A DNA stretch of 64,000 nt from Candidatus Micrarchaeota archaeon (GCA_032123335.1 JAQBFN010000012.1:91-64090); one strand, 5' to 3'; counted from the first letter of the stretch, positions 3,042 to 62,862 are shown. The notes: a model not told the origin generated them from the sequence alone. Program-made: numbers and translations.

Positions 3042-3170
3042 AAATATCACTTTTAGATGTGTTAATTAGTGTTACAAAACGTTTATAAAGATGTGGGAAG
3101 CGAATAGTGCAAAAAACAGACCACCCATATCCACCTTTTTAAACTATTCCCGCGCAAATAATATAATTGT

Positions 3171-21773: not shown

Positions 21774-21814
21774 AGGTCCCACACCTAGGGGAAATCGGAG
21801 AAAAGAGTTAAATT

Positions 21815-21861: not shown

Positions 21862-24141
21862 TTATTCCATAGTCAAATCTTCCCCATCCGTGCCTTCAAG
21901 GCCAGGGCAGTCTGTTTCCCAGGGCTGTACGCACTCCTTAAGGGGTTCACACCAAACATAGCCAGCAGAAGCTTTGCAGCCATGCTCATCTGTGTCTCCT
22001 CCAGTCTCGGGACCGGGGCCCTCAGCAGGGGGGCAGTCAGTCTCCCAGGACTTTATGCACTCCTTGAGGGTTTCGCACCATGTGTAACCGGCTGAAGCTT
22101 TGCAGCCATGCTCATCTGTGTCTCCTCCAGTCTGGGGTCCAGGGTCGAATGGCTCATCTCCAGGGATGACTGCAGTCACGGTATCGGAGTTAGGCCCTTC
22201 ATTTCCTGCGCTGTCAACTGCCGTTACATAGTATGCGTAGGTGTAGCCTTTAGCCAATCCTGAATCCTGCCAGGTTGTGGTCCTTGTGCTTCCGGCTTTT
22301 GCGAAGAGTCCGAAATCCGTGTTGCTGCGGTAGATATCATACTCGGAGATATCTCCTGAGACTCTTGACCAGCTCAAGTGCACTACATCGTTCCTGTCAA
22401 CAGTTGCGCGGAGGTTTGTAACCGGTCCGGGTGGGCTGGTGTCCAGGTAAATGGATGCAGACGCAGATTCCTTTCCATAGTCATTCTTGCACTGGTAGCT
22501 GACCGTTTTCTTTCCGCTTCCGGAAGTAAGGGTCCATGACATGCTGGTTGTGTAATCATCGTACGATGTCCAGCTGCCTCCACTGTTCTGGAATCTGCAT
22601 GCATCAGCATTGGTTGCACGGAGGGTGAGGGTTACATCCGCGCTGCTTGTGTGCGAAGCACCGTTGTTTATCTTGATGCTCATGCTCGATGGCGGCACTG
22701 GCTCCTTCTTGGAGTACGTTATGTCTGCGGAAGCTGTACCAAGGTCACCTCCATTGGCGTTCTTGCAGTTGTAGTAGACAGTTTTGTCTCCTTCACCTGA
22801 AGAAAGGGTCCAGTATTTCTTGGTTGTGTACGAGCTCCATCCGCTCCAGTCACTACCATACTCGTTCCTGTACCTGCACTGGGATGCAGAGTAGGTATAG
22901 AGGCCGAGCTTCACGTCCCTTGTGTTGGTCCAGTCATCCCCATTGTCGATTTCTATGGAGATTTTGTCTCCCTTGTGGGTGTCCAGGATTACTGAGTCTG
23001 AGGTGGTTTCAGAAAGCTGGCCTTCAGAGCTCTTGCACTCCACATAAACGGTTTTTGTGCCGTCTCCGGAGCTGAGCGTCCAGTGGGTTTCCTGGACATA
23101 TGGAACCCAGTTGTTCCATGCCATATTCTCGTTTGAGAACCTGCATTCTACTGCATTGTCAGCCATTACATCCAGGGTTACGTAGGTGCTGCTTACGTAT
23201 CCTGATCCGCTTTCAATGTGGAGTTCCACTCCTGAAGGGGTTGACCCCACAATAAAGCTTACTGATTCTTTTGCAGTGTTTGCGCCATCATTACAATTTA
23301 TTGTAAGTGTGTGGCTCCCTGCCTTTGCATTTATTGTCATGCTGTCTTCTGTTCCAACATCCAGGGTCCCAATTGCGATTGCTGCACCATCCACATCACC
23401 TGTGCAGGTAATTGTGGAGGACATCGGGTCGGTAACCGTGAACTTCAGCTGGAACTGTGTTGCATAGGTCTGTCCGCTCTGGGGCGAAGAGATTGAGATG
23501 CTCGGGCCGGTTGTGTCCAGCTCGATGGTTGCACTTACAGAGTTTGCTTCGTTTCCGTGCGCATCCTTGCATGTGTAGTAGACATCTTTCATTCCATCCC
23601 CGGATGAGAGCTGCCAGTTCATTGAAGTTGTGTAGGCTGCCCAGTCGCTCCAGGTAACCTTGTCATTGGAAACCCTGCACTCGGATGAGGTCTGCGCTGA
23701 AAGCGTAAGCGTAACATCCCTTGAGTTTGTGTGCGTGGCTCCATTGTTAATCTGGACTGAGAGGCCGCTTGGCGGGTTCACATCAGTGGATGCGCTCGCC
23801 TGCTCTGTGTTAGTGCCTTCAGTTCCGCCCGAGGTCATTGAGCGGACTGTGTAGTAATATACTACGCTGCTCTCCACGTTTGAGTCCATGTAAGAAGTGG
23901 AGGTGATCAGCACCGCGTTGATTTTGACCCCGAGATCCCCTGCGGCCGTGCTCCGGTAAACATTATATCCGGTAACATCGGCTTTCTGGGATGGGTTCCA
24001 GTTAACTTCAATTCCTCCTGCGACAGCTTTTGCGGTTACTCCGGTATTTTCTGGGCCTCCATTCTGGGGGCACCCGGCAATAAACACAAAGGAAAGCAGT
24101 ACAATTCCTAAGAATATGAGTAGTATGCTCTTGTTTTGCAT
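21862..24141 (-). CDS. Large modular surface protein (lipobox-like signal, 2 FN3-like, 4 repeated beta-domains, 2 Cys-rich C-terminal modules)
   Basis: The start at 24141 gives MQNKSILLIFLGIVLLSFVFIAGCPQ. Four ~90-aa repeats follow the pattern INNGA.HT.S.DVTLTL.A....CR..N....WS.W..YTTS..W.LSSG.G.K.VYY.CK. FN3-like modules lie at both ends. TGGDTDEHGCKASAGY.WCE.LKEC...WETDCP occurs twice. Confidence 0.75.
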   Translation of the reverse strand: MQNKSILLIFLGIVLLSFVFIAGCPQNGGPENTGVTAKAVAGGIEVNWNPSQKADVTGYNVYRSTAAGDLGVKINAVLITSTSYMDSNVESSVVYYYTVRSMTSGGTEGTNTEQASASTDVNPPSGLSVQINNGATHTNSRDVTLTLSAQTSSECRVSNDKVTWSDWAAYTTSMNWQLSSGDGMKDVYYTCKDAHGNEANSVSATIELDTTGPSISISSPQSGQTYATQFQLKFTVTDPMSSTITCTGDVDGAAIAIGTLDVGTEDSMTINAKAGSHTLTINCNDGANTAKESVSFIVGSTPSGVELHIESGSGYVSSTYVTLDVMADNAVECRFSNENMAWNNWVPYVQETHWTLSSGDGTKTVYVECKSSEGQLSETTSDSVILDTHKGDKISIEIDNGDDWTNTRDVKLGLYTYSASQCRYRNEYGSDWSGWSSYTTKKYWTLSSGEGDKTVYYNCKNANGGDLGTASADITYSKKEPVPPSSMSIKINNGASHTSSADVTLTLRATNADACRFQNSGGSWTSYDDYTTSMSWTLTSGSGKKTVSYQCKNDYGKESASASIYLDTSPPGPVTNLRATVDRNDVVHLSWSRVSGDISEYDIYRSNTDFGLFAKAGSTRTTTWQDSGLAKGYTYAYYVTAVDSAGNEGPNSDTVTAVIPGDEPFDPGPQTGGDTDEHGCKASAGYTWCETLKECIKSWETDCPPAEGPGPETGGDTDEHGCKASAGYVWCEPLKECVQPWETDCPGLEGTDGEDLTME
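21868..22133 (-). repeat. Tandem duplication of 126 nt (42 codons) encoding a 4-Cys module
   Basis: aagctttgcagccatgctcatctgtgtctcctccagtct occurs at 21969-22007 and 22095-22133. Confidence 0.85.
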
Positions 24142-24230
24142 TCCCACACCAAACCCTAATACTGGAAGAAGGTATAAATAGGTTTCTGGAATTTGGAGGG
24201 GAACCGAACCTCTGTCCACGATGGAAACCT

Positions 24231-40105: not shown

Positions 40106-40972
40106 ATGGATGTGCCGGAACTCCTGGACTCAGGGGTTGTGGTGCTGGACAAGCCCTGCGGCCCCGTGAGCCATGAGGTTACTTCCTGGGTTAAGAAATT
40201 TCTTGAAGTTCCCAGAGCTGGGCATGCGGGGACTTTGGATCCTGATGTATCTGGAGTTCTGCCTGTGGCTGTTGGGAGGGCGACTAAATTATTGAAGTAT
40301 ATTGCTAGTAAGAGGAAAACGTATGTGGGGATATGCAAATTCAGGAAGGAGCTTAAGCCGGATAGGATTGAGGATGTTTTTGCTAAATTCCGTGGGGAGA
40401 TTGAACAGACTCCCCCTCTTGTTTCTGCAGTTAAGAAAGTGAAAAGGAAGCGGTTTGTGCATTCGCTTGAAATTCTGGAAATTAAAGGGAAACGCGTACT
40501 GTTTAGTGCTACTGTGGAAGCGGGAACCTATATCCGGACTCTTTGTGAAGATATTGGGAAGGCTGCGGATACTGAGGCATTTATGGAGGAGTTGAGGCGC
40601 ACTGCTGTTGGGCGGATCCGGGAGGATTCTGCGCACACTGTGCAGGTGCTTGTGGATGCATATTGGCTCTGGAAGGAGAAGGGGGATGATTCTTTGCTTA
40701 GGAAATGTGTTGTGCCTGTGGATACTCTTATGGAGTTCAGGAGGGTGTATGTACGGGACAATGCTGCCGGGAGTTTAGCAAAGGGGGCGCAGCTGATGGC
40801 TCCTGGGCTTACTGCCGCTGAGCCCTTGATTAAGAAGGGGGATACTGTTTCGATTTATACTGAGGGTGGAACGTTTGTGGGGGTGGGAGTTGCGCTTTTT
40901 GATGGGCCGGGAATGAATGAGCAGAAAAAGGGGAAGGTTGTGAAAACCGAGAGAATTCACTTTAAAGCGTAG
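40106..40972 (+). CDS. cbf5: tRNA/rRNA pseudouridine synthase Cbf5 (TruB family) with PUA domain
   Basis: VVLDKPCGPVSHEV...AGHAGTLDPDVSGVLPVAVGRATK, with a C-terminal PUA-like GDTVSIYTEGGTFVGVG. Confidence 0.9.
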   Translation: MDVPELLDSGVVVLDKPCGPVSHEVTSWVKKFLEVPRAGHAGTLDPDVSGVLPVAVGRATKLLKYIASKRKTYVGICKFRKELKPDRIEDVFAKFRGEIEQTPPLVSAVKKVKRKRFVHSLEILEIKGKRVLFSATVEAGTYIRTLCEDIGKAADTEAFMEELRRTAVGRIREDSAHTVQVLVDAYWLWKEKGDDSLLRKCVVPVDTLMEFRRVYVRDNAAGSLAKGAQLMAPGLTAAEPLIKKGDTVSIYTEGGTFVGVGVALFDGPGMNEQKKGKVVKTERIHFKA

Positions 40973-40997
40973 TTCACAAATAACCATAAAAAGATAC

Positions 40998-41007
40998 ATT
41001 TTTAAAG
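40998..41007 (+). promoter_or_regulatory. TATA-box-like element (atttttaaag) about 30 nt upstream of the ATG at 41033
   Basis: Read directly. Confidence 0.4.
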
Positions 41008-41032
41008 ACTCTCTAAGATAAATATATAGTAT

Positions 41033-44000
41033 ATGCCTCGCCAGAAGAACGCTGAAAAAGAAGTAAAGGGGAGCCCTAGCAAAGCAAAAGAGCGCATAGG
41101 GCGCCTTGCTCCTTATGTGGAATCAGTGTTGAAAGAGAGGTATGGTTGTTATCCTGAGTCGCATCCGCTTTCACAATATGTAAAATCCATAGTGGAGAGG
41201 ATGGAAACTGGTGCGGACAAGGGAAGAATTTCAGTTTCTGTTACAAGGGGCTGGGAGGAAGCAAATGCATGTGCATTGCCGAATGGCGCAATCCTGATAA
41301 GCGACAGGATGTTCAAGTTTTGCGAAACAGAAGATGAGATTGCATTCGTAATAAACCATGAGCGCTCGCACATTAAGGGAGGGCATGCTGAAAGAATGTG
41401 TGATAACCAGAGCACCAAGGACATAATTTTGACAATCGGCAGCCTGAGGAGCCAGGAATACGAAGCAGATGTGCAGGCGGCCATAGAAAGCGGGGAAGGG
41501 CCCTTCAACCCGCATGGAGGAGCAGTCTTTCTGAACAGGATTAATGAAATGGAGAAAGAATGCGGGGTTGTGGAAGATATCGGACATGGCAGCAGCCTGT
41601 TGAGAATCCTGGCCTTGGATTACACTGCCAGGATAGTGGATATGCCTTCACTTTCCCATGCATTGACTCCTCTGCCCCAGGATATGTTGAGGAGTATAGA
41701 GAGTGATGTTGATCCTTGGAAAACAATCCTCAGGGATTCTTTAGATGAAACAGATCCACAGAAGTTGCATCTTGCACGTGAAGCTTTGGCTAAAAAGTGC
41801 GGAGTGCGTTCAGCACTAAGCCTAATGGGCCCAATATACAAGAGATATAACCGAATAAAGCAACATTCAGGGAAGAAGTATAATGGGGCCTCCCTAAGTG
41901 CAAAGATGAGGATGGAATTCGAAAGAAAAATACTCAAAATTCTTCTTGGAAAAATTGACTCTTTAATCAATAAGGAATATGGGGATCTGGATAAAGAAGG
42001 AAAGGAGGTAGTGAGGGCCTTGGTCCTGGAGTTGTGTGCGGGGGTCCCTCTCTCAGAAATGCATTTGAAAGGCGAGGACCACTTTGGGCTTTTTGATAGT
42101 TTCTCTAAGTTACTTCTGGGGAGAAAAAGCTATCAGGTAATGAAGATAATGGGGGAATTTTCAAGTAATTTCCCTGAAGAGCTGGTATTGGAAAGGTCCC
42201 CGAAAAAATTCATTGGGTCGATAATCAATATGCTTAGTGAAGGTGGTTGGTTCAGTGATAGGAAATACTCATTGGTGGTCAATATCCTGATGAAGGACCT
42301 TGAGAAAGCATACAGGAAGAAAGGGGCTATAGATATTGACTGGGGAGAAATAGAAACTGAATGCTCAATAGATATGATACTGGACACTAGTGTTGATGAA
42401 AATGCGGAAGCCATAGCGATTATTGATATTTCCGCCAAAAATTTGTCTGAAGAAAACAAGGCAAAGATAGTCAGGAATCTATTCAGCAGGGTTGAGTTCG
42501 ACCCAAAAGACCTTCCTGAGGGCTGGTCAGTGATGTTGGACAAATGGAAAAAGGAGAACCTGCCTGAGAAGTACCTGGAAGCAAAAGAGGCCATGGTGAG
42601 GATAGCGAAAAGGAAGTGGGAGGGGAGTATGACCACTTCTCTTTCGGAAGGAAAGGAGGTTCCTGAAGAGGATAAATACCCATTTAGTGAAGCCCTAAGA
42701 ATCCTGGGCACTGGTGACCTAAAAGAAATTGAATACTTCTTAGACAGCATCTGGGAAGACATGAGTATTGGGAAGAAGATTAAGGAAATTGTAGTGGGTG
42801 ATATCTCTGACTCATTTCTAAGAGGATGGGATAACGAACAACACAGGGAATTTGTAGATGCCCTACGGAGCAAAGAAGGTATTCTTGGGGTCTTGCACAT
42901 CATTTCAAAGTTCCCCTCTTGTACGGCGCAGTTAGAGTGCATTTGGTTTATGGAAACGGCCTGCGGAACAATGCAAACCCCGGAGGAATTGGCAGAGATA
43001 AAAGAAGATTTGAAAAAATATGGGTTTTACTCTGAACCTGAAGGGAAAGCGCTGATGGGCAAGTTATTTGAGAGCAGTGCTTCACGTTGGGCAGATGTTT
43101 TGCCCAGGGGGGAATTATTCAGGCAACTCAAAAGATCTGTGGAAATACTAAAACCGCACGAGTTTATGAGGGCGTATATACTGGGAGCTGAGATAGATAG
43201 GGGTTCAGCTGTGCTGGGATATGATGAATTGCTTGCAAAAATTCTGGATAAGTATTCCTTTGATACTGATAATGCCAGTGAAGCAGAAGAGTTGCTAACA
43301 GTATGCGCATTTCTTGGGGACTATGACCTTAAATCCCAGGTGTTGAGAAGCGTCCTTAGCAAGCAAATCCCTAAACTTGGGGCAGGAAACGCCAAGAAAT
43401 TGCTTTTTGGAGACCCCAGATTAGATGGAGTTAGCCTTAATGAAATGAGGGAAAGGATAATAAATGAAGAAATCCTTTCTCCGGAAAGCCTGGGGGAAGC
43501 AATAGATGAAGCAGTAGTATTCATGACGAAAAAGGAAAGCAGGAAAACCCTGGGCAAAGCAATAGTTGGGAATACTGTAATGGGTGAGCTCCTAAAAGAC
43601 AAGGATGGGGCCCTGAAGCTCTTCCTGAAATGTGCAGAGGATGACTTTGAGTTGAGAAAAGCCACATATCATGTCTGGGAAGCAGTAGGCGATAGATTAG
43701 AATATGTGATGCCCCTGTCTACATTGTATGAAAGAATGTATAATATAGATTTTTTGACCAAACAGCTTATTGTGCAGAATCTTCTCATGGGAAAGAATGG
43801 GGTGCTTATTAAACAGTCAAGCAGAAAAAAAACTGTAGATTGGGTTTTGGATTACTTTGTACAATCTTCAGAGGATGAAAGTGAAAAAAGGCTGATGGAA
43901 TTTCTGCGGGAGATACTTGGAAAACTGGCAGAAAAATCAGATGTTTCAACAATGTACTTCCTGCTTTCACCACTAATATTGGACAGGATATTGGTTAGGC

Positions 44001-45454
44001 CCAAGAATAAGATGACTTGGGGGGAATTCCTGGACAGAATGGCAGGAGAGCACTATGGAAAAATAAGAGCTGAAGCTACGGAAGATGTGGAGGAGCAGCA
44101 TTATGCGTTCCTGGAGGAAGGTGAAAAAGAAAAGAAGATCCTGGAGACAATTGATTATTTGTCTGATTATTATGAAATACGCGATCTCCGATACGTATCA
44201 GGACGTGATGCCGTATTGGAGAAGATAGAGGGGTTTGGGCCGGATAGCACCATACCAATCGACACAGAAGAAAGTGAAAGGCATCTTCTACAAAGTGTGA
44301 GAGTTATAGAAAAATTATCCAAATACATAGAATCTGAAGCAGTAAAGGATAATGGAAAAAGGATCTTGAAACCCATGGAATTCGTAAGGCTTGTTGCAAG
44401 CCACTTGGGTTCGCCGGGAGTAAGGTTCCTACAGACGCTGGGGCTTTATGTTGATTTGCCTGATGAATACAGGGAAGAATTCGACAAAGTATATGATTCA
44501 ATGAGAGGGCAGCCAAAGCTCTCTGCTTTCCATACTCTAAAGAGGGAGTGGGAAGGGCTTAGTGGAGAAGTGGCAGAGATGAGGGCTCCGGTTGGGGCAG
44601 GTTCCCTCCTTACTGTTTATGAAGTGAAAACGGCAGAGGGGGAGAAAGAGGTTGTGAAGGTGCTAAACCCGAATGCATCTTTCCACACAGAATCAATGTG
44701 TGAATTAATAGAAAGCGCATTCAAGGCTATGAAGAAACACGAGGGACTTGCTGTTCCTGTGCTAAGGGACATCAAAACCTGGATAAACGAGGATATTTCA
44801 TTTGAAGATTCATTTGAGAAAGACCGGAGGTTCCGGGATATTCATAGTGGATGGAATGCTGAGGACTCTGCGTACTCGATTTATGTTCCTGAGACGCGCG
44901 GGAAGGAGAATAAGTATTACATACGAGAGGAGTTTGTTGAGGGGAAAAACCTTACCCAATGGGACAGCCTTGTTGAAGAAGGGCATAATATGAAAGATAT
45001 CATGAGCACTGTGGTGAAAAACTCTGTTATTCAGTTGGTGGATGGGCAGGTGCATTCTGACCTGCATCCTGGAAACATAAGGATTACCAGTGATAAGAGG
45101 GTGTGCTACCTGGACAGGAATTACTATATAGAAATAGATGATGCGGACAGGCAGTTTATACTGGGGCTGGAATCTTCCCTGGAGGATAGGGAAGAATTGG
45201 CTGGAAAGATTGCTAGGTATTTTGCTGGAGAAGATGACCCTGTGCTCCAGAAGAAGATTGCTGAGAAAATAGGTGATGATGAAGGGGACCCTGCACACCT
45301 AGTTGCAGGGGCTTTGGTAGAAGTAAGAAACAGGGGATATGATGTTCCTCTGAAAGTGACCCTTATTCTGAAGAATATCCTTTCTTTGGACAGGCTTGCC
45401 AAGAGGGCTGGGTTCTCAGGCATTACAGAAGCATATCTTTACGAGAATAAGTGA
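41033..45454 (+). CDS. Giant (1,473-aa) protein: N-terminal M48-type Zn-metalloprotease motifs, long helical middle, C-terminal ABC1/UbiB-type kinase-like domain
   Basis: HERSH at aa 109-113 and QEYEAD at aa 141-146. The C-terminus has VGAGSLLTVYEV..KEVVKVLNP, EEFVEGKNL, VHSDLHPGNIRI and YLDRN. I see no obvious TM segments. Confidence 0.75.
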   Translation: MPRQKNAEKEVKGSPSKAKERIGRLAPYVESVLKERYGCYPESHPLSQYVKSIVERMETGADKGRISVSVTRGWEEANACALPNGAILISDRMFKFCETEDEIAFVINHERSHIKGGHAERMCDNQSTKDIILTIGSLRSQEYEADVQAAIESGEGPFNPHGGAVFLNRINEMEKECGVVEDIGHGSSLLRILALDYTARIVDMPSLSHALTPLPQDMLRSIESDVDPWKTILRDSLDETDPQKLHLAREALAKKCGVRSALSLMGPIYKRYNRIKQHSGKKYNGASLSAKMRMEFERKILKILLGKIDSLINKEYGDLDKEGKEVVRALVLELCAGVPLSEMHLKGEDHFGLFDSFSKLLLGRKSYQVMKIMGEFSSNFPEELVLERSPKKFIGSIINMLSEGGWFSDRKYSLVVNILMKDLEKAYRKKGAIDIDWGEIETECSIDMILDTSVDENAEAIAIIDISAKNLSEENKAKIVRNLFSRVEFDPKDLPEGWSVMLDKWKKENLPEKYLEAKEAMVRIAKRKWEGSMTTSLSEGKEVPEEDKYPFSEALRILGTGDLKEIEYFLDSIWEDMSIGKKIKEIVVGDISDSFLRGWDNEQHREFVDALRSKEGILGVLHIISKFPSCTAQLECIWFMETACGTMQTPEELAEIKEDLKKYGFYSEPEGKALMGKLFESSASRWADVLPRGELFRQLKRSVEILKPHEFMRAYILGAEIDRGSAVLGYDELLAKILDKYSFDTDNASEAEELLTVCAFLGDYDLKSQVLRSVLSKQIPKLGAGNAKKLLFGDPRLDGVSLNEMRERIINEEILSPESLGEAIDEAVVFMTKKESRKTLGKAIVGNTVMGELLKDKDGALKLFLKCAEDDFELRKATYHVWEAVGDRLEYVMPLSTLYERMYNIDFLTKQLIVQNLLMGKNGVLIKQSSRKKTVDWVLDYFVQSSEDESEKRLMEFLREILGKLAEKSDVSTMYFLLSPLILDRILVRPKNKMTWGEFLDRMAGEHYGKIRAEATEDVEEQHYAFLEEGEKEKKILETIDYLSDYYEIRDLRYVSGRDAVLEKIEGFGPDSTIPIDTEESERHLLQSVRVIEKLSKYIESEAVKDNGKRILKPMEFVRLVASHLGSPGVRFLQTLGLYVDLPDEYREEFDKVYDSMRGQPKLSAFHTLKREWEGLSGEVAEMRAPVGAGSLLTVYEVKTAEGEKEVVKVLNPNASFHTESMCELIESAFKAMKKHEGLAVPVLRDIKTWINEDISFEDSFEKDRRFRDIHSGWNAEDSAYSIYVPETRGKENKYYIREEFVEGKNLTQWDSLVEEGHNMKDIMSTVVKNSVIQLVDGQVHSDLHPGNIRITSDKRVCYLDRNYYIEIDDADRQFILGLESSLEDREELAGKIARYFAGEDDPVLQKKIAEKIGDDEGDPAHLVAGALVEVRNRGYDVPLKVTLILKNILSLDRLAKRAGFSGITEAYLYENK

Positions 45455-45518
45455 AGGTAGGTCTGGGTTAAGGCTAAAGAATAAAAAGAAATGGTATAAG
45501 TATAACTACACACTTTTT

Positions 45519-45603
45519 GCGGAGATGGCAGAACCTGGTTATCGCGCACGCCTGGAAAGCGTGTGCCCTCACGGGCTTGGGAGTTCAAATCTCCCTCTCC
45601 GCG
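45519..45603 (+). tRNA. tRNA-Ser (anticodon GGA), class II, no encoded CCA
   Basis: Hand-folded. The acceptor is GCGGAGA/TCTCCGC and the anticodon stem is CACGC/GCGTG with loop CTGGAAA. The long variable arm is GCCC-tcac-GGGC, the T arm is GGGAG-TTCAAAT-CTCCC, and the discriminator is G. The D stem is weak, with one A-C mismatch. Confidence 0.9.
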
Positions 45604-45610
45604 TAGCGCA

Positions 45611-45700
45611 GCGAAGCGGGAGGGGCTGTGGCCGAATGTTGAGCTCTGCTCAACAGATGTAACCGAAGGTTACAAAGAGGTCACTCAACCCTCTCCGCGT
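45611..45700 (+). ncRNA. Unclassified structured element (three-way junction) ending in a 12-nt copy of the tRNA-Ser 3' end
   Basis: Helix P1 pairs 45619-45625 with 45690-45696, and P2 pairs 45628-45633 with 45679-45684. There are 7-bp hairpins at 45637-45655 and 45658-45674. ccctctccgcgt occurs at 45593-45604 and 45689-45700. It is followed by a T5 run. Confidence 0.3.
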
Positions 45701-45710
45701 CAATTTTTAT
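45701..45710 (+). terminator. Oligo-T tract (caatttttat)
   Basis: It is the first T5 run downstream of the tRNA and the structured element. Archaeal RNA polymerase terminates at oligo-T. Confidence 0.35.
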
Positions 45711-47076: not shown

Positions 47077-48102
47077 TCAACCAAAAAGCTTGGACCAGTT
47101 CCTTTTTTTGCGGTCTTTCCAGTATCCTTTATGGTATGCGTAGTTTGCAATTAGGGGAACTACTGTGGTGGCCTCTGCATAAACCATCTGCTCGTGCACA
47201 GTGTCCACCTTGCCCCAGGAAGATGCTTCCTTGAGCGTGGAGCTGGAGCATGCGCCATCGCGTACATCTGCAACAGTAATCTGCACTGCATATTCGTGCA
47301 TCGGGACTTCTTTTCCGAGGCACTCTGCGCAAACAACTGTGTCCTGGGCAAAATTCTTGGGAACTCCGCCTCCAACCATGAACAGGCCGGAAGTGGGGGA
47401 CTCGATTTTTATTTTCGTAACTTCGTAGAAATCCTTCACCGAATCTAGGGAAACGTGCTCCTTGGGGTGCTCTGCCTGGTGCATTACAAGGCCGAAGCCT
47501 GCGCTGGAGTCTGAAAATGCGGGACAGAAAATGGGGACGTTGTTTTCGTAGGCGACCTGGACAAGGGAATCCTTTTTCTTTGCGTGATTCTGGAGGTACT
47601 TGCCCATCTCCGCAATGAATTCACGGGAAGAATAGGGCCTTGGTTCAAGGGAATCTGCGATTTTCTTTATTGTGGAATCGCATGCCTGGAGTTCTTCTTC
47701 ATCAATGTAAGTATCGTAGATACGGTCGATGTAGCGCTCCCGGAGCTCGGTATCGTTTACAAATTGGGAACCCTTGTAGTGCTTGAAGCCCAAGGCTTCG
47801 AAAAAGTCCATGTCTACAATCGATGCGCCGGTAGCGACTATTGCATCAATCATGTTGTACTTTACCATATCAGAGTAGACCTGCATGCATCCGCCTGCAC
47901 TGGTGCTTCCTGCAAGGGTGAGGAAATTAGTGCATCCTTCCTTTTTGAGCATCATGTTCAGGATGTCTGCGGCACGTGCGGTGTCCCTGGAAGTAAAAGA
48001 CATGTCGCGCATTGAATCCAGCAATTTGGTTCCATCAAATGAGGTTATGTCTATGTGTTTGACTGTTTCCTTGAGGTAGTCTTTCTTCTCCATTTTGCCC
48101 AC
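47077..48102 (-). CDS. dys: Deoxyhypusine synthase
   Basis: FLTLAGSTSAGGCMQVY...IDAIVATGASIVDMDFFEALGFKHYKG. Confidence 0.9.
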   Translation of the reverse strand: MGKMEKKDYLKETVKHIDITSFDGTKLLDSMRDMSFTSRDTARAADILNMMLKKEGCTNFLTLAGSTSAGGCMQVYSDMVKYNMIDAIVATGASIVDMDFFEALGFKHYKGSQFVNDTELRERYIDRIYDTYIDEEELQACDSTIKKIADSLEPRPYSSREFIAEMGKYLQNHAKKKDSLVQVAYENNVPIFCPAFSDSSAGFGLVMHQAEHPKEHVSLDSVKDFYEVTKIKIESPTSGLFMVGGGVPKNFAQDTVVCAECLGKEVPMHEYAVQITVADVRDGACSSSTLKEASSWGKVDTVHEQMVYAEATTVVPLIANYAYHKGYWKDRKKRNWSKLFG

Positions 48103-57362: not shown

Positions 57363-59651
57363 ATGAGATGGCTACCGATAATCCTCATTATGGCCCTTCT
57401 GTTTTATGGTTGTGTGGAAGAGCGCCAGGTAAGCATTACAGGCTACGAACAGGTTGAATCCATAACCGGTATGGACATCACCGGGGACGGGGTAAACGAC
57501 ATAAAGATTTACACGTATAATGCGAAGGAAATAAACGACCAGATTGGCCTGTATATGCGGAAAACGGTAACCACATATCCTGTTTCATATTCAGCGCAAC
57601 TTACTACATATCCTCCCATAACCGGGATGGAGCTTCAGGGCATAAAGGATAGTATCGGGGAATTCAGGGATGCGAAAGCCTCGGGGGAAAGCACCTGCTT
57701 TTCAAAACTCGGCATAACCCAGGATTCCTGCGGGGATGAAGATTCCTGCATTGAGAGGTGCACAACCTCCACATGCGAAAAGGTAATGGAGTATAATGAG
57801 GAGAGCTTTGGCCATGAATTGTATTTGTTCAGCTACAACACAGGTGAGCTGGACCAGCTTATAACCGAGGTTGAGGCAACGGGCTCAATCACCACGCAGG
57901 AAGACAAGGATGCGATGGCGGGCAAGCTTGCGAATATGCTTGCGATAACTGCAAAGCTCCGGGCGAGCCTTCTGTTCAGGGCAGATGTGTTTGGAGCGTG
58001 CACCGCACCCAATTATGATACAAGCAAGATAAGGGCGGCAATCTCAGAGCTCGGGGCATATGAGCTGGAAGCAGGAAACTATGAGTACAAGGTTGTGGTG
58101 CTCCTGGATGGGGGAGATGAGGATGAGTTCCTTGAGCTTTACCTCAGGGACAGCCCGCCAATACTTGTAAGCGTGGAGCAATTCTCGCTGGATGTGCTGG
58201 GCAACGGGAAGATTTACGAGAAGGAGCCGCTCACGGTTGGGTGGGACAGCGTGGAGGTGAATTCCCCGCACAGGCTTGTATACTATGATTTTGTTTCCAC
58301 TACTGAGCCAAGCGAAGAGGTGATGGCGAAGTGGAGATACCCGAGCGTAAGGGAGAGGAACCTCACTGCGCTCAAATACATAAACCAGATTTATGAGAAC
58401 CCGATAGGGCAGTTCATATTTGGGGTTTCTGCAGCAGTGTTCAGCATTTTCCTATTCCTGGGTTACTATGCGGCGATTGGGGCTGCAGTTGCGCTCTGGG
58501 TAATAATGCTGTTTATCCTGCTGCTTCTGCTGGAAACCCTCTACCATGTGATAAGGGCGGCGATGGACAAGAAAAGCATAAAGGAAGTGCTTATGGATTC
58601 GTTCGGAGCACCCATGCCGGACTGGAAAACATATGTGGTTGTGGGGGGAGTGCTTGTGCTTGCTGCAGTGCTCGTAAACATGTTTTATACAACTCCTGTG
58701 GAGGCCAGGCTATTTGAGATGGGAGCGCTTATCACGAACCTGGGCTCGGACTTTGCTGGAGCTGCAGTAGTGGTTCTTTTCGTTATTGGAGTATATACCC
58801 TGTTCCTTGTGCTTGAGGACCTCATCAAGGGGCTGATGATAGGGAAGGATTATTACGAGCTCAAGGGCGCAACAAAGGAAGACAACCTGGCGGAGCTTGC
58901 AAATCTCAGGGAAACCTGGCAGGCATTGCGCATGCGCGTGGAAGACCTTTCCAAAACCGGGATGGTGGTTACGGAAGAGTATGCAATTATTGTTTCCGTT
59001 CCTGTGGAAAGGCTTGAGCAGATGATTGAATCCGGCAAGCAGGGAATGGCGAAGCAGCTCATAAGGTTTAACCAGGAAAGGCTGGAAACCCTGGATGGAA
59101 GGCTGGACGAGAAAGTAAACGTGATGAACGAGAAATGGCCGGAATGGAAAGAAGAGCTTGCAAAGGCCCTTGCGGGGAACGACAGCGTTCCGCTCAACAC
59201 ACTGCTCTTTATCCCGATGCAGTGGAGGGAATGGGCAGTTGAAAAATACATAAGCGAAAACAGGACAAAGGGATACGTGCTTGAAAACGAGGTAATTGTA
59301 AAGAGGGAAGTAAAGGTTGATGAGCTCCTTACAAAGAAGCTCAGGGACCTGCTGAAGAAGAAAACGGTGAAGGATGCTGTTCTGCTTTCGCAGGACCTGG
59401 AAGTTTTCAATTCATTCCACAAAGGAAAGAAAACCGTAGTGGATGTTCTTTTCCTGAAGCTCAGGTCATATGTGGAAGCGCTCTCAAAGAAGATGGGTGC
59501 ATCCGAAGTGAAGAGGTTTGTGGTTTCAGGAAAGAATAATGCTGCTGTGTATGTTATGCATGGCAAATACCAGGCGTTGATTGTTGCTGACAAGGCAAGG
59601 ATAAGGGAAGTCGTTGAAGACTGGAACGCAATGGTCGAAAAGCTATCTTAA
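57363..59651 (+). CDS. Large membrane protein, function unknown (lipobox-like signal, Cys-rich ectodomain, about 4 TM, cytoplasmic coiled coil)
   Basis: MRWLPIILIMALLFYGC and the Cys-rich patch CFSKLGITQDSCGDEDSCIERCTTSTCEK. The TM block spans about aa 350-480 and the C-terminal 280 aa are helical. Confidence 0.65.
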   Translation: MRWLPIILIMALLFYGCVEERQVSITGYEQVESITGMDITGDGVNDIKIYTYNAKEINDQIGLYMRKTVTTYPVSYSAQLTTYPPITGMELQGIKDSIGEFRDAKASGESTCFSKLGITQDSCGDEDSCIERCTTSTCEKVMEYNEESFGHELYLFSYNTGELDQLITEVEATGSITTQEDKDAMAGKLANMLAITAKLRASLLFRADVFGACTAPNYDTSKIRAAISELGAYELEAGNYEYKVVVLLDGGDEDEFLELYLRDSPPILVSVEQFSLDVLGNGKIYEKEPLTVGWDSVEVNSPHRLVYYDFVSTTEPSEEVMAKWRYPSVRERNLTALKYINQIYENPIGQFIFGVSAAVFSIFLFLGYYAAIGAAVALWVIMLFILLLLLETLYHVIRAAMDKKSIKEVLMDSFGAPMPDWKTYVVVGGVLVLAAVLVNMFYTTPVEARLFEMGALITNLGSDFAGAAVVVLFVIGVYTLFLVLEDLIKGLMIGKDYYELKGATKEDNLAELANLRETWQALRMRVEDLSKTGMVVTEEYAIIVSVPVERLEQMIESGKQGMAKQLIRFNQERLETLDGRLDEKVNVMNEKWPEWKEELAKALAGNDSVPLNTLLFIPMQWREWAVEKYISENRTKGYVLENEVIVKREVKVDELLTKKLRDLLKKKTVKDAVLLSQDLEVFNSFHKGKKTVVDVLFLKLRSYVEALSKKMGASEVKRFVVSGKNNAAVYVMHGKYQALIVADKARIREVVEDWNAMVEKLS

Positions 59652-59691: not shown

Positions 59692-62600
59692 ATGGTCGAA
59701 GAATATGGAGCTGAATCCATCAAAGTGCTTGAAGGCCTTGAAGGAGTTAGGAGAAGGCCGGCGATGTACATTGGGGACACTGCAAAGCGTGGGCTGCACC
59801 ACCTCATTTTCGAAGTGGTGGACAACAGCATAGATGAGGCCCTTGCGGGATACTGCAAGAACATAGAAGTGCTTCTGAAGAAGGATGGCTCAGTAATGGT
59901 CAGGGATGACGGGAGAGGAATTCCCGTAGACATACATTCAAAAACCGGGAAATCCGCGCTTGAGCTGGTCACTACTGTGCTGCATGCGGGTGGAAAGTTT
60001 GAGAAGAAAGCCTACCAGGTTAGCGGAGGGCTGCACGGAGTCGGGCTTTCGGTTGTGAACGCGCTGAGCGAGTGGATGGAAGCGGAAATACACCGGGCAG
60101 GAAAAATCCACAGGCAGAAATACGCGTTTGGAAAAGCGATTTCTCCAGTGGAAGTAATTGGTGAGACTGATACAACGTGCACCATAATCAGGTTCAAGCC
60201 GGACACGGGCATCTTTGCGGGGGAGCTGGAGTTCAACTACCTGAAGGACAGGATGCGGGAGCTTGCGTTCCTTAATGCAGGGCTGCGCATAGTGATGAGG
60301 GATGAGGAATCCGGGCAGGAAGAGGTATTCCAGTTTGAGGGCGGGCTGAAAACCTTCGTGGAATACATGAACAGGTCCAGGAAGCCAATCCAGCAGCCTT
60401 TCAGCTACGGGAAAAAAGTAAATGATGTTGATGTGGAGTATGCAATACAGTACACCCAGAATTTCACTTATGTGGTGCACTCATTTGTAAACAACATAAA
60501 CACGATTGAGGGCGGAACGCACCTTGTGGGGTTCAAGATGGCGCTTACCCGCGCAATAAACGAATACATGAAAGACAATAAAACGCTCAAGGGAAGGAAA
60601 CTCAGCGGGGACGATGTGCTTGAGGGGCTTACTGCAATCATAAGTGTAAAGGTTATGGAGCCCCAGTTTGAAGGGCAGACAAAAACCAAGCTCGGGAATA
60701 CAGAAGTGAAGGGGATTACCTCAAGCATAGTATATGAAAGCCTGATGCAGTTCCTGAATGAGAACCCAGCTGAAGCGCGGATGATTGGGGAAAAGGTTCT
60801 TGGTGCGCTGAATGCGCGTGAGGCTGCGCAAAAAGCAAAGGAGCTTATCCGCAGGAAGAGCGTATTCGAGAGTTCCGTGCTTCCGGGGAAGCTTGCGGAC
60901 TGCATCGAGCGCGACCCGCAGAAAGCTGAAATCTTTATTGTAGAGGGAGACTCTGCCGGGGGCTGCTTTTCGGGAGATACTACGGTTGCATTGGCTGATG
61001 GGAGGAATGTGCCCTTCAAGCAGCTCGTAAACGAGCATGCCGAAGGAAAGAAGAATTATTGTTATACCCTTGATGATGATGGGGGCATTCGGATCGCAGG
61101 GGTAAAAAATCCGAGGCTCACAAGAAAAAACGCAGATGTGATGAAGGTTGTGCTGGACAACGGGGAGGAGATAACCTGCACTCCAGACCACTTGTTCAGG
61201 CTCCCGGATGGAACATATCTTCCTGCAAAAGAACTTTCATCAGGAACAGGTGTGGCGCCTCTCTACAGAAAATTGTCCAAGAAAGAAGGGCGGATAACGA
61301 TAGAAGGCTACGAGATGGTTTATGATTCATCCAAAAGAAAATGGATTTTCACCCATCTCTTGGCAGACCGGTTGAATCTAAGGCGCAACTCATACTGCAG
61401 GGAAGCTGGCAGTCATAAGCACCACAAAGATTTCAACAAGCTAAACAATAATCCAGACAACATCACAAGAATGAGCGGAGAAGAGCACATGGACCTTCAC
61501 GCCAAGCACGCAGAGAGAACAATCGGGCGAGAGGACGTAAAAGAAAAATGCAGGAAAATCAAGAAAACACCTGAGTACAGAAAAAAAATAAGGAAAACTA
61601 TGCTTAAGCAATCCGGAGCATTGAGTGCAAGGGCAAAGCAGCAGTGGGGGAATAGTGAATACAAACAGTACATGGCTGAAAAATACCTGCAATTCTACAA
61701 TGAAAATGAGGAATACAGGAAAAACTTGGCAGTGCGGCTGCAAAAAGAGCAGGAAAAATACTGGGGCGAGCCTGAGAACAGAAAAAAGCAATCCAAGCGG
61801 GTAAAGGAATTCTTTGAAAAACACCCTGGACACCGGGCTCGGTTTTCAGAAGTGGCCAATATGCAATGGAAAGACCCCGAACTCAGGGCATGGAGGTCTA
61901 AAAAGACCTCGAAGCAGTGGACTCCGGAATTCAGGATAAAAAGAAAGGCTGCTTATGACAAAACATATTTCAACAACACGATTGCATTCATGAAGAAAAT
62001 CGATGAGCGGGATGGGTCGCTGGAGAAGTATGATGCTGAACGGATAAAATCACGGAACAAAAACCTCCTGAGGCTTGACACCTTTGCGGAAAGGTTCTTC
62101 AGTTCAGATACTGATGCACTGCAGGAAGCAGTTAGAAACCACAACCATAAAGTGACAAGGATTGAGAAAATCCGCAAAAGAACGGATGTGTATGACTTGG
62201 AAGTAGAAGGCACCCATAATTTTGCTCTTTCTGCAGGAGTATTTGTCCATAATAGCGCGAAGCAGGGAAGGGACAGGCGAATCCAGGCAATCCTTCCGCT
62301 CAAGGGAAAGATTTTGAATGTGGAAAAGGCGCAGATTCACAAAATCCTGAAGAATGAGGAAATCAAAACGCTCATACTAAGTTTGGGAACAGGGTTTGGG
62401 GAGGATTTTGACCCCGGGAAATTGAGATATCATAAGGTTGTGATTATGACGGATGCGGATGTGGACGGAAGCCATATCCGGACGCTGCTGCTTACGCTTT
62501 TCTACAGGTACTTCAAGGTGCTTATTGAGCGCGGGTACCTGTATATTGCGCAGCCGCCTTTGTACAGAGTGAAGAAGGGGAAGGTGAGCGAGTATGCATT

Positions 62601-62862
62601 TAATGATGCGGAGCTGGGGATTGCGCTGGAAAAGTTCGGGGAGAACTCACATGTGAGCAGGTACAAGGGGCTCGGTGAGATGAACCCTGTGCAGCTTTGG
62701 GAAACTACGCTCAACCCTGAAAACAGGAACCTGAAGAGGGTAACAATCCAGGATGCGGTGCTTGCGGATGAGCTTTTCACTACGCTGATGGGGGAGGATG
62801 TTGAGCCCAGGCGGAAGTTCATAGAGGACCATGCAAAGGAGGTTGCGAACCTGGACGTATAG
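59692..62862 (+). CDS. gyrB: DNA gyrase subunit B, interrupted by an in-frame intein
   Basis: Contains RRRPAMYIGDT, HLIFEVVDNSIDEA, GGLHGVG, EGDSAGG|...|SAKQGRDR, PLKGKILNVEK and IMTDADVDGSHIRTLLLT. Confidence 0.95.
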   Translation: MVEEYGAESIKVLEGLEGVRRRPAMYIGDTAKRGLHHLIFEVVDNSIDEALAGYCKNIEVLLKKDGSVMVRDDGRGIPVDIHSKTGKSALELVTTVLHAGGKFEKKAYQVSGGLHGVGLSVVNALSEWMEAEIHRAGKIHRQKYAFGKAISPVEVIGETDTTCTIIRFKPDTGIFAGELEFNYLKDRMRELAFLNAGLRIVMRDEESGQEEVFQFEGGLKTFVEYMNRSRKPIQQPFSYGKKVNDVDVEYAIQYTQNFTYVVHSFVNNINTIEGGTHLVGFKMALTRAINEYMKDNKTLKGRKLSGDDVLEGLTAIISVKVMEPQFEGQTKTKLGNTEVKGITSSIVYESLMQFLNENPAEARMIGEKVLGALNAREAAQKAKELIRRKSVFESSVLPGKLADCIERDPQKAEIFIVEGDSAGGCFSGDTTVALADGRNVPFKQLVNEHAEGKKNYCYTLDDDGGIRIAGVKNPRLTRKNADVMKVVLDNGEEITCTPDHLFRLPDGTYLPAKELSSGTGVAPLYRKLSKKEGRITIEGYEMVYDSSKRKWIFTHLLADRLNLRRNSYCREAGSHKHHKDFNKLNNNPDNITRMSGEEHMDLHAKHAERTIGREDVKEKCRKIKKTPEYRKKIRKTMLKQSGALSARAKQQWGNSEYKQYMAEKYLQFYNENEEYRKNLAVRLQKEQEKYWGEPENRKKQSKRVKEFFEKHPGHRARFSEVANMQWKDPELRAWRSKKTSKQWTPEFRIKRKAAYDKTYFNNTIAFMKKIDERDGSLEKYDAERIKSRNKNLLRLDTFAERFFSSDTDALQEAVRNHNHKVTRIEKIRKRTDVYDLEVEGTHNFALSAGVFVHNSAKQGRDRRIQAILPLKGKILNVEKAQIHKILKNEEIKTLILSLGTGFGEDFDPGKLRYHKVVIMTDADVDGSHIRTLLLTLFYRYFKVLIERGYLYIAQPPLYRVKKGKVSEYAFNDAELGIALEKFGENSHVSRYKGLGEMNPVQLWETTLNPENRNLKRVTIQDAVLADELFTTLMGEDVEPRRKFIEDHAKEVANLDV
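60964..62253 (+). mobile_element. GyrB intein (430 aa) with an HNH-type homing-endonuclease-like insert
   Basis: It begins CFSGDTTVAL directly after GDSAGG and ends GVFVHN before SAKQGRD. The insert has HKHHKDFNKLNNNPDNITRMSGEEHMDLH and repeated W-containing basic motifs. Boundaries were read in frame from the DNA. Confidence 0.9.

Follow-up and report, generated by a model that had tools for sequence, protein, structure and literature searches.

Proteins of the UbiB/ABC1 family are among the most widespread kinase-like proteins, and it is debated whether they act as protein kinases, ATPases or lipid chaperones. They have an Ala-rich (AAAS) loop in place of a Gly-rich loop and a KxGQ domain that covers the active site, and a single A-to-G change in the Ala triad confers protein-kinase activity on COQ8A (PMC8956952). 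COQ8 has been described as an ATPase in which hydrolysis gates a ligand pocket by a long-range conformational change (PMC13418538). In photosynthetic organisms, the M48 protease PGM48 shares a compartment with ABC1K proteins, to which it appears to be functionally linked (PMC8956952, PMC12223511). These are distinct proteins bound to lipid droplets, and they have no solenoid. Among soluble M48 zinc metalloproteases, BepA (YfgC) is a 487-amino acid (aa) periplasmic protein whose protease directly precedes a helical-repeat (TPR) domain, and it has no nucleotide-binding module. The soluble branch that includes BepA and the Geobacter protein 3C37 also includes Oma1, YcaL and LoiP. Here, we describe a gene that joins an M48 protease to a UbiB-like domain on one chain. 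It lies at 41033..45454 (+) in a 64,000-nucleotide (nt) stretch of Candidatus Micrarchaeota archaeon (GCA_032123335.1, JAQBFN010000012.1:91-64090; the window). The open reading frame (ORF) is a genuine gene for a predicted soluble, single-chain, two-enzyme protein, and it belongs to a conserved but undescribed family.

The ORF had been singled out in a preliminary description made from the sequence alone. It is present as described, with an ATG start and 1,473 codons for amino acids in 4.4 kb of uninterrupted sequence on the + strand. The same gene, in the same context, is found in a second assembly (GCA_964460335.1, locus L037), which differs from the window at one nucleotide within the gene and has 11 mismatched positions over 15.9 kb. 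The motifs quoted earlier are all in place: HERSH at residues 109-113, inside IAFVINHERSHIKGGH; QEYEAD(VQAA), as part of RSQEYEAD at 139-146; and, toward the C-terminus, PVGAGSLLTVY (1186-1196), KEVVKVLNPNA (1205-1215), WINEDISFEDS (1249-1260), IREEFVEGKNLT (1297-1308), HSDLHPGN (1341-1348) and CYLDRNYY (1358-1365). The spacer between TVYEV and KEVV is six residues long, not the eight given before. Features of the gene and its product are listed below. Conservation is counted throughout over 119 full-length representatives of the family, each from another 50%-identity cluster.

41033..45454, + strand: coding sequence of the M48/alpha-solenoid/UbiB-like protein, ATG start, 1,473 aa, same ORF in the second assembly
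41108..41707, + strand: M48 zinc-metalloprotease domain, BepA/3C37-like, residues 26-225 (Pfam, profile, hhalign and Foldseek)
41357..41371, + strand: HExxH zinc-binding/catalytic motif HERSH, residues 109-113; H in 118, E in 116 and H in 118 of 119
41447..41470, + strand: RxxExxAD motif RSQEYEAD, residues 139-146; R139 in 117, E142 in 118 and D146 in 119 of 119
41585..41605, + strand: H-x5-R motif HGSSLLR, residues 185-191; H185 in 117, G186 in 119 and R191 in 118 of 119
41708..43207, + strand: first part of the predicted alpha-solenoid, residues 226-725; moderately conserved to 475, variable over 476-725
43208..44032, + strand: conserved helical module before the kinase-like domain, residues 726-1000; near-invariant G923, F976, P980 and W996
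44033..44332, + strand: variable helical linker, residues 1001-1100; low conservation and occupancy
44333..45451, + strand: UbiB/ABC1-type kinase-like domain with an N-terminal KxGQ-type helical extension, residues 1101-1473 (Pfam, BLASTP and Foldseek)
44423..44434, + strand: RFLQ, equivalent of the UbiB KxGQ motif, residues 1131-1134; R1131 in 114/119, Q1134 in 117/119
44594..44605, + strand: Gly-rich nucleotide loop GAGS (GGGS in the family), aligned to AAAS and to ASAS of Rv3197
44657..44659, + strand: beta-3 lysine K1209 (VVKVLNPN), aligned to the invariant UbiB Lys; K in 97 and R in 16 of 119
44792..44794, + strand: D1254, alpha-C acid, aligned to the Glu of UbiB ELDF/ELDY; D in 103 and E in 12 of 119
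45053..45076, + strand: catalytic loop HSDLHPGN with catalytic Asp D1343, residues 1341-1348, aligned to HADPHPGN
45113..45115, + strand: metal-binding D1361 (LDRN), equivalent of the DFG Asp, aligned to LDLG; D in 114/119, the next R in 113/119

The N-terminal domain is assigned to M48 by Pfam, as had been proposed: Peptidase_M48 (PF01435) matches residues 48-127 with an E value of 1.2e-10 (42 bits, against a cut-off of 20.3), although the match covers only profile positions 5-89 of 186. When compared to the Protein Data Bank (PDB), a profile of the family aligns to the Geobacter M48 peptidase 3c37 (E 1.4e-18), to BepA (3e-12) and to the minimal archaeal gluzincin MJ1213 (6e-5). An hhalign comparison with Escherichia coli BepA has a probability of 97.9% and places HERSH over HEISH and E142 over the zinc ligand E201. 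By alignment, E142 is thus the third zinc ligand, and it also corresponds to the Glu in REYE..AD of 3c37. Foldseek searches with an AlphaFold (AF2) model of residues 1-1200 recovered BepA (6ait, E 4.4e-5) and 3c37 (E 3.4e-4, template modelling score [TM] 0.57, 238 columns). The predicted local distance difference test (pLDDT) of the protease domain is mostly 87-98, with a dip to 77 at residues 121-130. Downstream, H185-GSSLL-R191 has the same H-x5-R spacing as H246-PLPES-R252 of BepA. This motif starts 14 residues past the end of the hhalign alignment (16 in BepA), outside the continuous alignment, and H185 is likely, but not proven, to be the equivalent of BepA H246.

The HtpX/Ste24 subtype suggested previously does not hold. 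The protein has no transmembrane segment, and its nearest relatives are the soluble BepA, 3c37 and MJ1213; the protease belongs to the soluble BepA/Oma1-like branch of M48. The lack of hydrophobic helices was read correctly (the maximum Kyte-Doolittle mean over 19 residues is 1.28), but for the protease part it is not odd, because the M48 domain is of the soluble BepA/3C37 kind. NCBIfam models gave remote matches only (BepA 26.5 against a cut-off of 570, LoiP 12.6 against 365). The present protein and the BepA/3C37 group share the protease fold, a soluble catalytic domain, HExxH, the Glu ligand in (R/N)xxExxAD and, by motif and spacing, H-x5-R, and in BepA as here the protease directly precedes helical sequence. 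They differ in what follows, which here is ~900 helical residues and a kinase-like end. The window protein also has no export signal, and it has Gly instead of Pro after the putative switch His.

The C-terminal domain matches Pfam ABC1 (PF03109) at residues 1185-1377 with an E value of 2.4e-19 (69.9 bits, against 22.9), spanning profile positions 36-226 of 244, so that both families named in the preliminary description match above curated cut-offs. TIGR01982 matches residues 1111-1376 in part with 60.1 bits against a cut-off of 487.55, and PRK04750 scores 26.9 against 667. The protein is not a UbiB orthologue, because its TIGR01982 score is far below that cut-off. BLASTP aligns it to a canonical AarF/UbiB protein of a Sphingomonas plasmid (E 1e-16), collinearly from the lid motif to the C-lobe, pairing VRFLQ with VKLGQ, GAGS with AAAS, VVKVLNP with VLKIRRP, NEDISF with EELDF, HSDLHPGN with HADPHPGN and LDRN with LDLG. 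The family profile aligns to Rv3197 (E 3e-10). With a model of residues 700-1473 as query, the top five Foldseek matches are all COQ8A (including 7udp, 5i35 and 4ped; E about 1e-10, TM 0.67-0.71), followed by MSMEG_1954 and Rv3197; ordinary Ser/Thr kinases match far more weakly.

The catalytic positions of the UbiB fold are retained. D1254 occupies the position aligned to the ELDF-type motif, and D1343, N1348 and D1361 provide the HxDxHPGN loop and the DFG-equivalent Asp that had been predicted. Within the catalytic loop, D1343 is Asp in 105 and Asn in 9 of the 119 representatives, the Gly is found in 115 and N1348 in 113. The helical extension that would correspond to KxGQ falls within the COQ8A structural match; its Arg and Gln are near-invariant, and the Lys and Gly are replaced. 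The Ala-rich loop listed among the earlier signatures is not present as AAAS, and GAGS/GGGS stands in its place (G in 117, G in 112, G in 118 and S in 113 of 119). From these alignments, the domain is a divergent member of the UbiB fold with a putatively full catalytic set. It shares with COQ8A/ADCK3, E. coli UbiB, Rv3197/MSMEG_1954 and plant ABC1K the fold, with a helical extension at the place of the N-terminal lid, the collinear motifs from the KxGQ position to the C-lobe, the beta-3 Lys, the alpha-C acid, the HxDxHPGN loop and the metal-binding Asp. It differs from them by G(G/A)GS for AAAS, RxxQ for KxGQ, KVLNPN for K(V/I)Q(R/Y)PG and DRN for DFG/DLG, by the absence of a transmembrane helix and by its fusion to about 1,100 N-terminal residues.

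The ~900 residues between the two ends, described before as helical and without a recognised motif, are all-helical by DSSP in both AlphaFold models, and Pfam and PDB sequence searches of this middle region, including residues 726-1000, returned no match. Foldseek gave weak, generic matches to HEAT/ARM-type solenoids (MMS19, CAND1, importins and SF3B1). The two models cover residues 1-1200, anchored by conserved parts at both ends (pLDDT 78.6, predicted template modelling score [pTM] 0.82), and residues 700-1473 (pLDDT 85, pTM 0.84). In these predictions, the middle is an all-alpha solenoid of ~900 residues made of two modules. Values of pLDDT are lower at residues 450-650 and low at 1015-1041, in the linker. 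The module at 726-1000 mostly has pLDDT of about 85-96 and is modelled as a single rigid unit with the kinase-like domain (pTM 0.84). The high pTM suggests that the predicted body as a whole is rigid. A 30-sequence alignment divides the protein into corresponding blocks: the protease (26-225) is conserved, 226-475 is moderately conserved, 476-725 is variable, the helical module (726-1000) is conserved, the linker (1001-1100) is variable and the kinase-like domain (1101-1473) is highly conserved.

We searched 1.84 billion cluster representatives with HMMER, using residues 1-1150 as the query, which leaves out most of the kinase-like domain. At E<=1e-3 there were 342 matching proteins; tightening the threshold to E<=1e-10 left 188 clusters, and E<=1e-30 left 45. 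The best 150 matches are mostly 1,400-1,650 aa long. The closest known homologue among these representatives is ~35% identical to the window protein. Direct searches for homologous proteins returned only the window protein, one homologue from a metagenome-assembled genome (MAG) and four kinase fragments. At least 119 diverged full-length homologues (1,200-1,800 aa) have the same domain order. All 30 homologues that were tested carry both Peptidase_M48 and ABC1, and the only additional Pfam match among them is a weak one to APH (kinase-fold) in one member. HExxH and HPGN lie at a nearly fixed distance from each other (median, 1,221 residues; interquartile range, 1,172-1,252), and larger relatives of 2,216-4,078 aa (P0044, P0047, P0062 and P0065) hold the whole module unchanged. 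The three predicted parts are shown by these comparisons to travel together always, at constant spacing, even within relatives of 2,200-4,100 aa. Because the catalytic residues are nearly invariant in the 119 representatives, both predicted active sites are under strong purifying selection, and the same counts show both putative catalytic centers to be complete. An N-terminal hydrophobic segment occurs in 12 of 133 homologues and is absent from the window protein.

The architecture had been called unusual and undescribed. It is indeed absent from the searched literature, in which no paper names both PF03109 and PF01435 or describes the fusion, and NCBI automatic annotation of it reads "M48 family metalloprotease" only. 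It is not a one-off, and the family comprises at least about 130 clusters at 50% identity. What is new is the combination of an M48 domain, a ~900-residue solenoid and a UbiB-like domain, which is conserved and mobile; the parts come from known superfamilies, with no new fold or chemistry.

Two kinds of relatives depart from the single chain of 1,200-1,800 aa. In a marine lineage (archaeon SI039), the gene is split into two ORFs of 639 aa and 799 aa with an ATGA overlap, at a site that corresponds to residue ~670 of the window protein, inside the variable stretch of the solenoid. The junction sequence is identical in four independent assemblies (L006 7977-12292, L023 and L025 at the same coordinates, and L032 3328-7028), and the split ORFs are translationally coupled. 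The near-identical split-gene loci differ at too few sites for pN/pS to serve as evidence, and a probable indel confounds one pair. A natural split at this site points to two separable modules within the protein, which would be the protease with the first half of the solenoid and the second half of the solenoid with the kinase-like domain. Separately, giant relatives of ~3,000-6,300 aa embed the complete M48-solenoid-UbiB module, including P0044 (3,013 aa), proteins at L011 2523-19919 (5,798 aa) and L019 7683-16796 (3,037 aa), and P0062, P0065, P0070 and P0080 (6,307 aa). P0044 has an N-terminal GHKL ATPase (HATPase_c) and C-terminal HEAT repeats. A Pfam scan of the extensions of the giant relatives other than P0080 found no other match, and with these extensions blank except in P0044, the extra domains were set aside as a functional clue.

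In the window genome, the gene is a recent acquisition by comparison with the two closest relatives, L040 (GCA_024231195.1) and L041 (a metagenome contig from ENA), which were found through their at least 90% identical Cbf5. Both share the order r-proteins, SecY, Adk, EMC3-like, L34e, Cmk, L14e, Cbf5, tRNA-Ser and speE, and neither has the M48-UbiB gene at the syntenic locus. In blastn, L040 aligns to the window up to 40968 and L041 up to 40971, with flanks that are 89.5% and 92.5% identical, and the alignments restart at 45468 and 45480, respectively. The difference defines a cassette with these features:

40969..45467, + strand: single-gene cassette of 4.5 kb, consisting of promoter region, gene and 13 nt trailer, present in the window and L037
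40962..40968, + strand: left 7-nt direct repeat TTAAAGC, in the last codons of cbf5
45468..45474, + strand: right 7-nt direct repeat TTAAGGC, flanking the cassette
41000..41007, + strand: TATA-like box TTTTAAAG, read directly in the sequence, 26-33 nt upstream of the ATG

A single TTAAGGC in L040 (10854-10860) matches both repeat copies of the window, and no integrase, transposase or terminal inverted repeats were found around the cassette. The window and L041 are nearer to each other than either is to L040, and the more parsimonious account is therefore a single gain in the window lineage, as opposed to two losses. On this account, the window lineage had already diverged from its nearest sampled relatives when it probably gained the cassette horizontally, at the junction of cbf5 and tRNA-Ser. 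The TATA-like box noted earlier is in place, and TTTTAAAG presumably acts as a promoter, given the archaeal promoter consensus. From its position, the transcript would have little or no leader. As an accessory cassette that was probably acquired horizontally and brings its own promoter, the gene would therefore have a function that is self-sufficient and portable between archaea and bacteria.

Suspicion of a foreign or fast-evolving gene had originally been based on a low content of guanine plus cytosine (GC). The direction of that difference is right, but its size was overstated: GC makes up 43.9% of the gene, whereas the window has 48.1% and the r-protein cluster about 48-51%. At third codon positions, the GC fraction (GC3) is 0.458, and the mean is 0.547 (z = -1.8). 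Three other genes equal or fall below this GC3, and the gene is unremarkable in its synonymous codon usage. Foreign origin from composition alone was thus not decisive and was rejected as an argument; the foreign part of the suspicion stands through comparative synteny, with two relatives whose 89-92% identical flanks lack the gene.

Several further differences were observed around the insertion site. The C-terminus of Cbf5 is altered by the insertion (window 40958-40972, L040 10850-10870): it ends in ...HFKA* in the window, with TAG at 40970, in ...HFKAKE* in L040, and in ...HFKA* with a different stop codon in L041. At the cassette position, L041 (10868-10925) has an unrelated insert of ~55 nt with the hairpin GACAAAACTGGCTTTTGTC, which makes the junction of cbf5 and tRNA-Ser a hot spot of sequence gain. 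On the other side, the gene directly precedes a tRNA, as described, with tRNA-Ser(GGA) at 45518-45604, 64 nt past the stop codon. The 11-nt 3' end of this tRNA, CCCTCTCCGCG, is repeated ~96 nt downstream (window 45613-45701, L040 10991-11046, L041 11049-11115). The stretch between the CCCTCTCCGCG copies has a stable multi-hairpin fold closed by GCGGGAGGG/CCCUCUCCGC (-44.7 kcal/mol, z = -4.5); both relatives keep this outer stem, around a loop whose length ranges from about 45 to 85 nt. In the stretch after tRNA-Ser, no match to Rfam attained the gathering score of its family. Possible identities of the structure are a remnant of an att site, a small RNA linked to the tRNA, and a terminator.

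Across the family, 35 loci were sampled, 19 from GTDB species representatives and 16 from metagenomes. The GTDB loci belong to Micrarchaeota (3) and one unclassified archaeon; to Patescibacteria (9: Daviesbacteria, Saccharibacteria, Levyibacteriota, Peribacteria x3, Berkelbacteria and one unclassified); to Omnitrophota (2), Elusimicrobia (1) and Planctomycetia (1); and to MAGs labelled Gamma- or Deltaproteobacteria (3). A neighbor-joining tree of the kinase region interleaves these taxa, which is compatible with horizontal transfer, in a tree too shallow to lean on. Gene GC follows host GC in most loci. No neighbor family is conserved across the 35 loci. Among 33 other loci, tRNA adjacency was counted in three, and a tRNA at a distance of up to ~450 nt in only two (L007 and L014), in addition to the window; a link to tRNA genes was rejected as a family trait. 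Searches of IMG/VR and of phage and plasmid collections found nothing beyond generic UbiB domains; with these blank, and with neither terminal inverted repeats nor an integrase at the cassette, cargo of a mobile element was rejected as well.

A Pfam and PADLOC census of 120 flanking genes yielded mostly housekeeping functions, with no enrichment of defense families and no defense model matched by more than one protein, and the idea of a defense island was dropped. Family members themselves have marginal, kinase-fold matches to PD-T4-6 in PADLOC-DB 2.0 (E 1.2e-3 for the window protein, 4e-5 for P0002). P0002 is the homologue in a Deltaproteobacteria MAG (JADGCS010000003.1, L001/L002), where it stands beside ppk/ppx and a 900-aa cNMP-binding protein and within 5-10 kb of AAA_14-DUF4143 (PADLOC PDC-S01), WYL/WCX and GmrSD genes. 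This is the only defense-like neighborhood among the loci.

Elsewhere in the window, the deoxyhypusine synthase gene (47077-48102) lies between speH and a His_Phos gene, as it does in L041, and it is missing from this position in L040 (12350-12455), which makes it the second gene of this neighborhood to differ in presence. Deoxyhypusine synthase is usually considered essential in archaea, and a copy elsewhere in L040 is therefore expected. The GyrB gene (59692-62862, +; 1,056 aa) holds an intein (Intein_splicing, residues 433-854) between the DNA_gyraseB and Toprim domains. Three large ORFs have no Pfam match at E<=1e-6 (738-3050, -, 770 aa; 3171-4271, +, 366 aa; 57363-59651, +, 762 aa). The adjacent ORFs at 20043-21782 (-) and 21862-24219 (-) have NosD/beta-helix and fibronectin-III domains and are probably surface proteins.

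The best reading of the architecture, which we infer and hold tentatively, is a nucleotide-gated protease. The UbiB-like module would bind and hydrolyse ATP, or it may autophosphorylate, which the Gly-rich loop would favor; the loop would be a natural counterpart of the COQ8A A-to-G mutant that gains phosphotransfer. A conformational change of this module would be relayed along the solenoid and would govern substrate capture and access to the M48 site. That site may be closable, or self-inhibited, by the conserved His of the H-x5-R motif, as in BepA, where H246 can ligate the zinc. Enzymes that combine a metal-dependent catalytic domain and a regulating nucleotide-hydrolysing module on one chain include the archaeal Kae1-Bud32 fusion (KEOPS), in which the module is an atypical kinase acting as an ATPase, and FtsH and Lon, in which it is an ATPase driving a protease. 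Their folds and families are unrelated to those found here, and the ATPases of FtsH and Lon form AAA+ rings. Because Kae1 is no protease at all, caution is due when function is read from domain names.

Several points weigh against nucleotide gating or the horizontal gain. Coupling of the protease to the kinase-like domain is drawn only from their obligate co-occurrence, and the match of H185 to BepA H246 from motif and spacing, outside any continuous alignment. The polarity of gain versus loss at the locus depends on three genomes and simple distances. Arg replaces the beta-3 Lys in 16 of 119 homologues and Asn replaces the catalytic Asp in 9, so that phosphotransfer may not be essential everywhere. 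For the UbiB proteins characterised to date, the targets are lipids or quinone intermediates, and proteases are not among them.

In an alternative that we consider doubtful but serious, the two domains are independent activities tethered in one pathway, as in a "Rosetta-stone" fusion. The UbiB-like domain would handle a lipid or small hydrophobic ligand at the surface of a membrane or lipid body, in the manner of COQ8, and the M48 domain would trim or remove membrane-associated proteins at the same place, with the solenoid as a mere scaffold and no gating. Plastoglobules and cyanoglobules harbor both ABC1K proteins and separate M48 proteases (PGM48 and sll1280), and the amount of PGM48 tracks the dosage of ABC1K6 (PMC8956952, PMC12223511). 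A fusion such as the present one is the event expected if both families cooperate, although orthology of PGM48 and ABC1K to this family is without support. As an ATPase, COQ8 pulls lipid intermediates out and acts as their chaperone (PMC13418538). The natural split into two ORFs is in line with this alternative, as is the hydrophobic segment of 12 of 133 homologues, a possible membrane anchor. Characterised M48 proteases are mostly enzymes of membrane-protein quality control. The window protein and about 90% of its homologues, however, have no N-terminal anchor, and the strict spacing and rigid high-pTM models suggest more than a loose tether. Many carrier lineages (Patescibacteria and DPANN) are also reported to be without electron-transport chains (PMC7507113).

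A second serious alternative, which we rate as rather unlikely, is a single-gene conflict system of the antiviral or abortive-infection type. The variable solenoid would sense an invader, the kinase-like module would switch, and the M48 effector would cleave host or viral proteins. This would suit the sporadic spread over distant phyla and both domains of life, the recent insertion of a stand-alone cassette with its own promoter, the lack of conserved partner genes and the hypervariable stretches at 476-725 and 1001-1100 between invariant catalytic modules. GC3 somewhat under the host value and the WYL/WCX, GmrSD and AAA_14-DUF4143 (PDC-S01) genes 5-10 kb from the Deltaproteobacteria homologue point in the same direction. 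The PADLOC matches, however, are weak and of kinase-fold type (E 1e-3 to 4e-5), the 120 flanking genes are mostly housekeeping with no defense enrichment, the family is absent from IMG/VR and from the phage and plasmid collections, and gene GC that tracks the host in most loci argues for long residence.

It is very unlikely that the protein is a secreted or contact-delivered effector of episymbiotic or predatory cells, with a protease and a kinase that act on host proteins. Most carriers belong to Patescibacteria or Micrarchaeota and the rest to Omnitrophota, Elusimicrobia and other groups, and many of these lineages are considered host-dependent; some homologues sit within proteins of 3,000-6,300 aa, and some have an N-terminal hydrophobic segment. 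Neither the window protein nor about 90% of the family has a signal peptide or anchor, though, and linked secretion genes were not found in the neighborhoods. Biosynthetic genes in the window (PurP-like DUF1246/DUF1297, PFOR and polyamine synthesis) also indicate that this archaeon is not obviously a reduced symbiont. An artefact, either separate genes joined by misassembly or a pseudogene in decay, might be suspected in a metagenome-derived contig whose gene has slightly lower GC than its neighbors, but it is effectively refuted: a chimera is contradicted by the independent assembly and by more than 100 collinear homologues, and the uninterrupted ORF, the invariant catalytic residues of those homologues and the confident, compact structure predictions speak against both forms.

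A broader version of the nucleotide-gated protease can be entertained, although we regard it as improbable. The family may be a new self-contained, horizontally mobile class of kinase-gated proteases, in which the Gly-loop UbiB fold would be a true phosphotransferase or an ATP switch that licenses M48 via a solenoid sensor. In ultra-small symbiotic bacteria and archaea, its role would then be that of an ATP-dependent protease of a novel type or of a module for immunity or conflict. If so, the UbiB family would gain its first soluble and tractable member whose output is defined and acts in cis.

The scatter over phyla and the recent insertion at the ribosomal-protein/cbf5/tRNA locus show a 4.4-kb single gene moving between domains of life and working without partners, which hints that the family is an unrecognised accessory system. 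The fusion is independent genomic support for a functional link between M48 and ABC1, for which co-localisation on plastoglobules and cyanoglobules had hitherto been the only support. Because the family is soluble and combines a naturally Gly-rich loop with an intact zinc protease on the same chain, the use of ATP by a UbiB domain becomes testable in one polypeptide, and the family offers a soluble handle on the unsettled function of UbiB domains.

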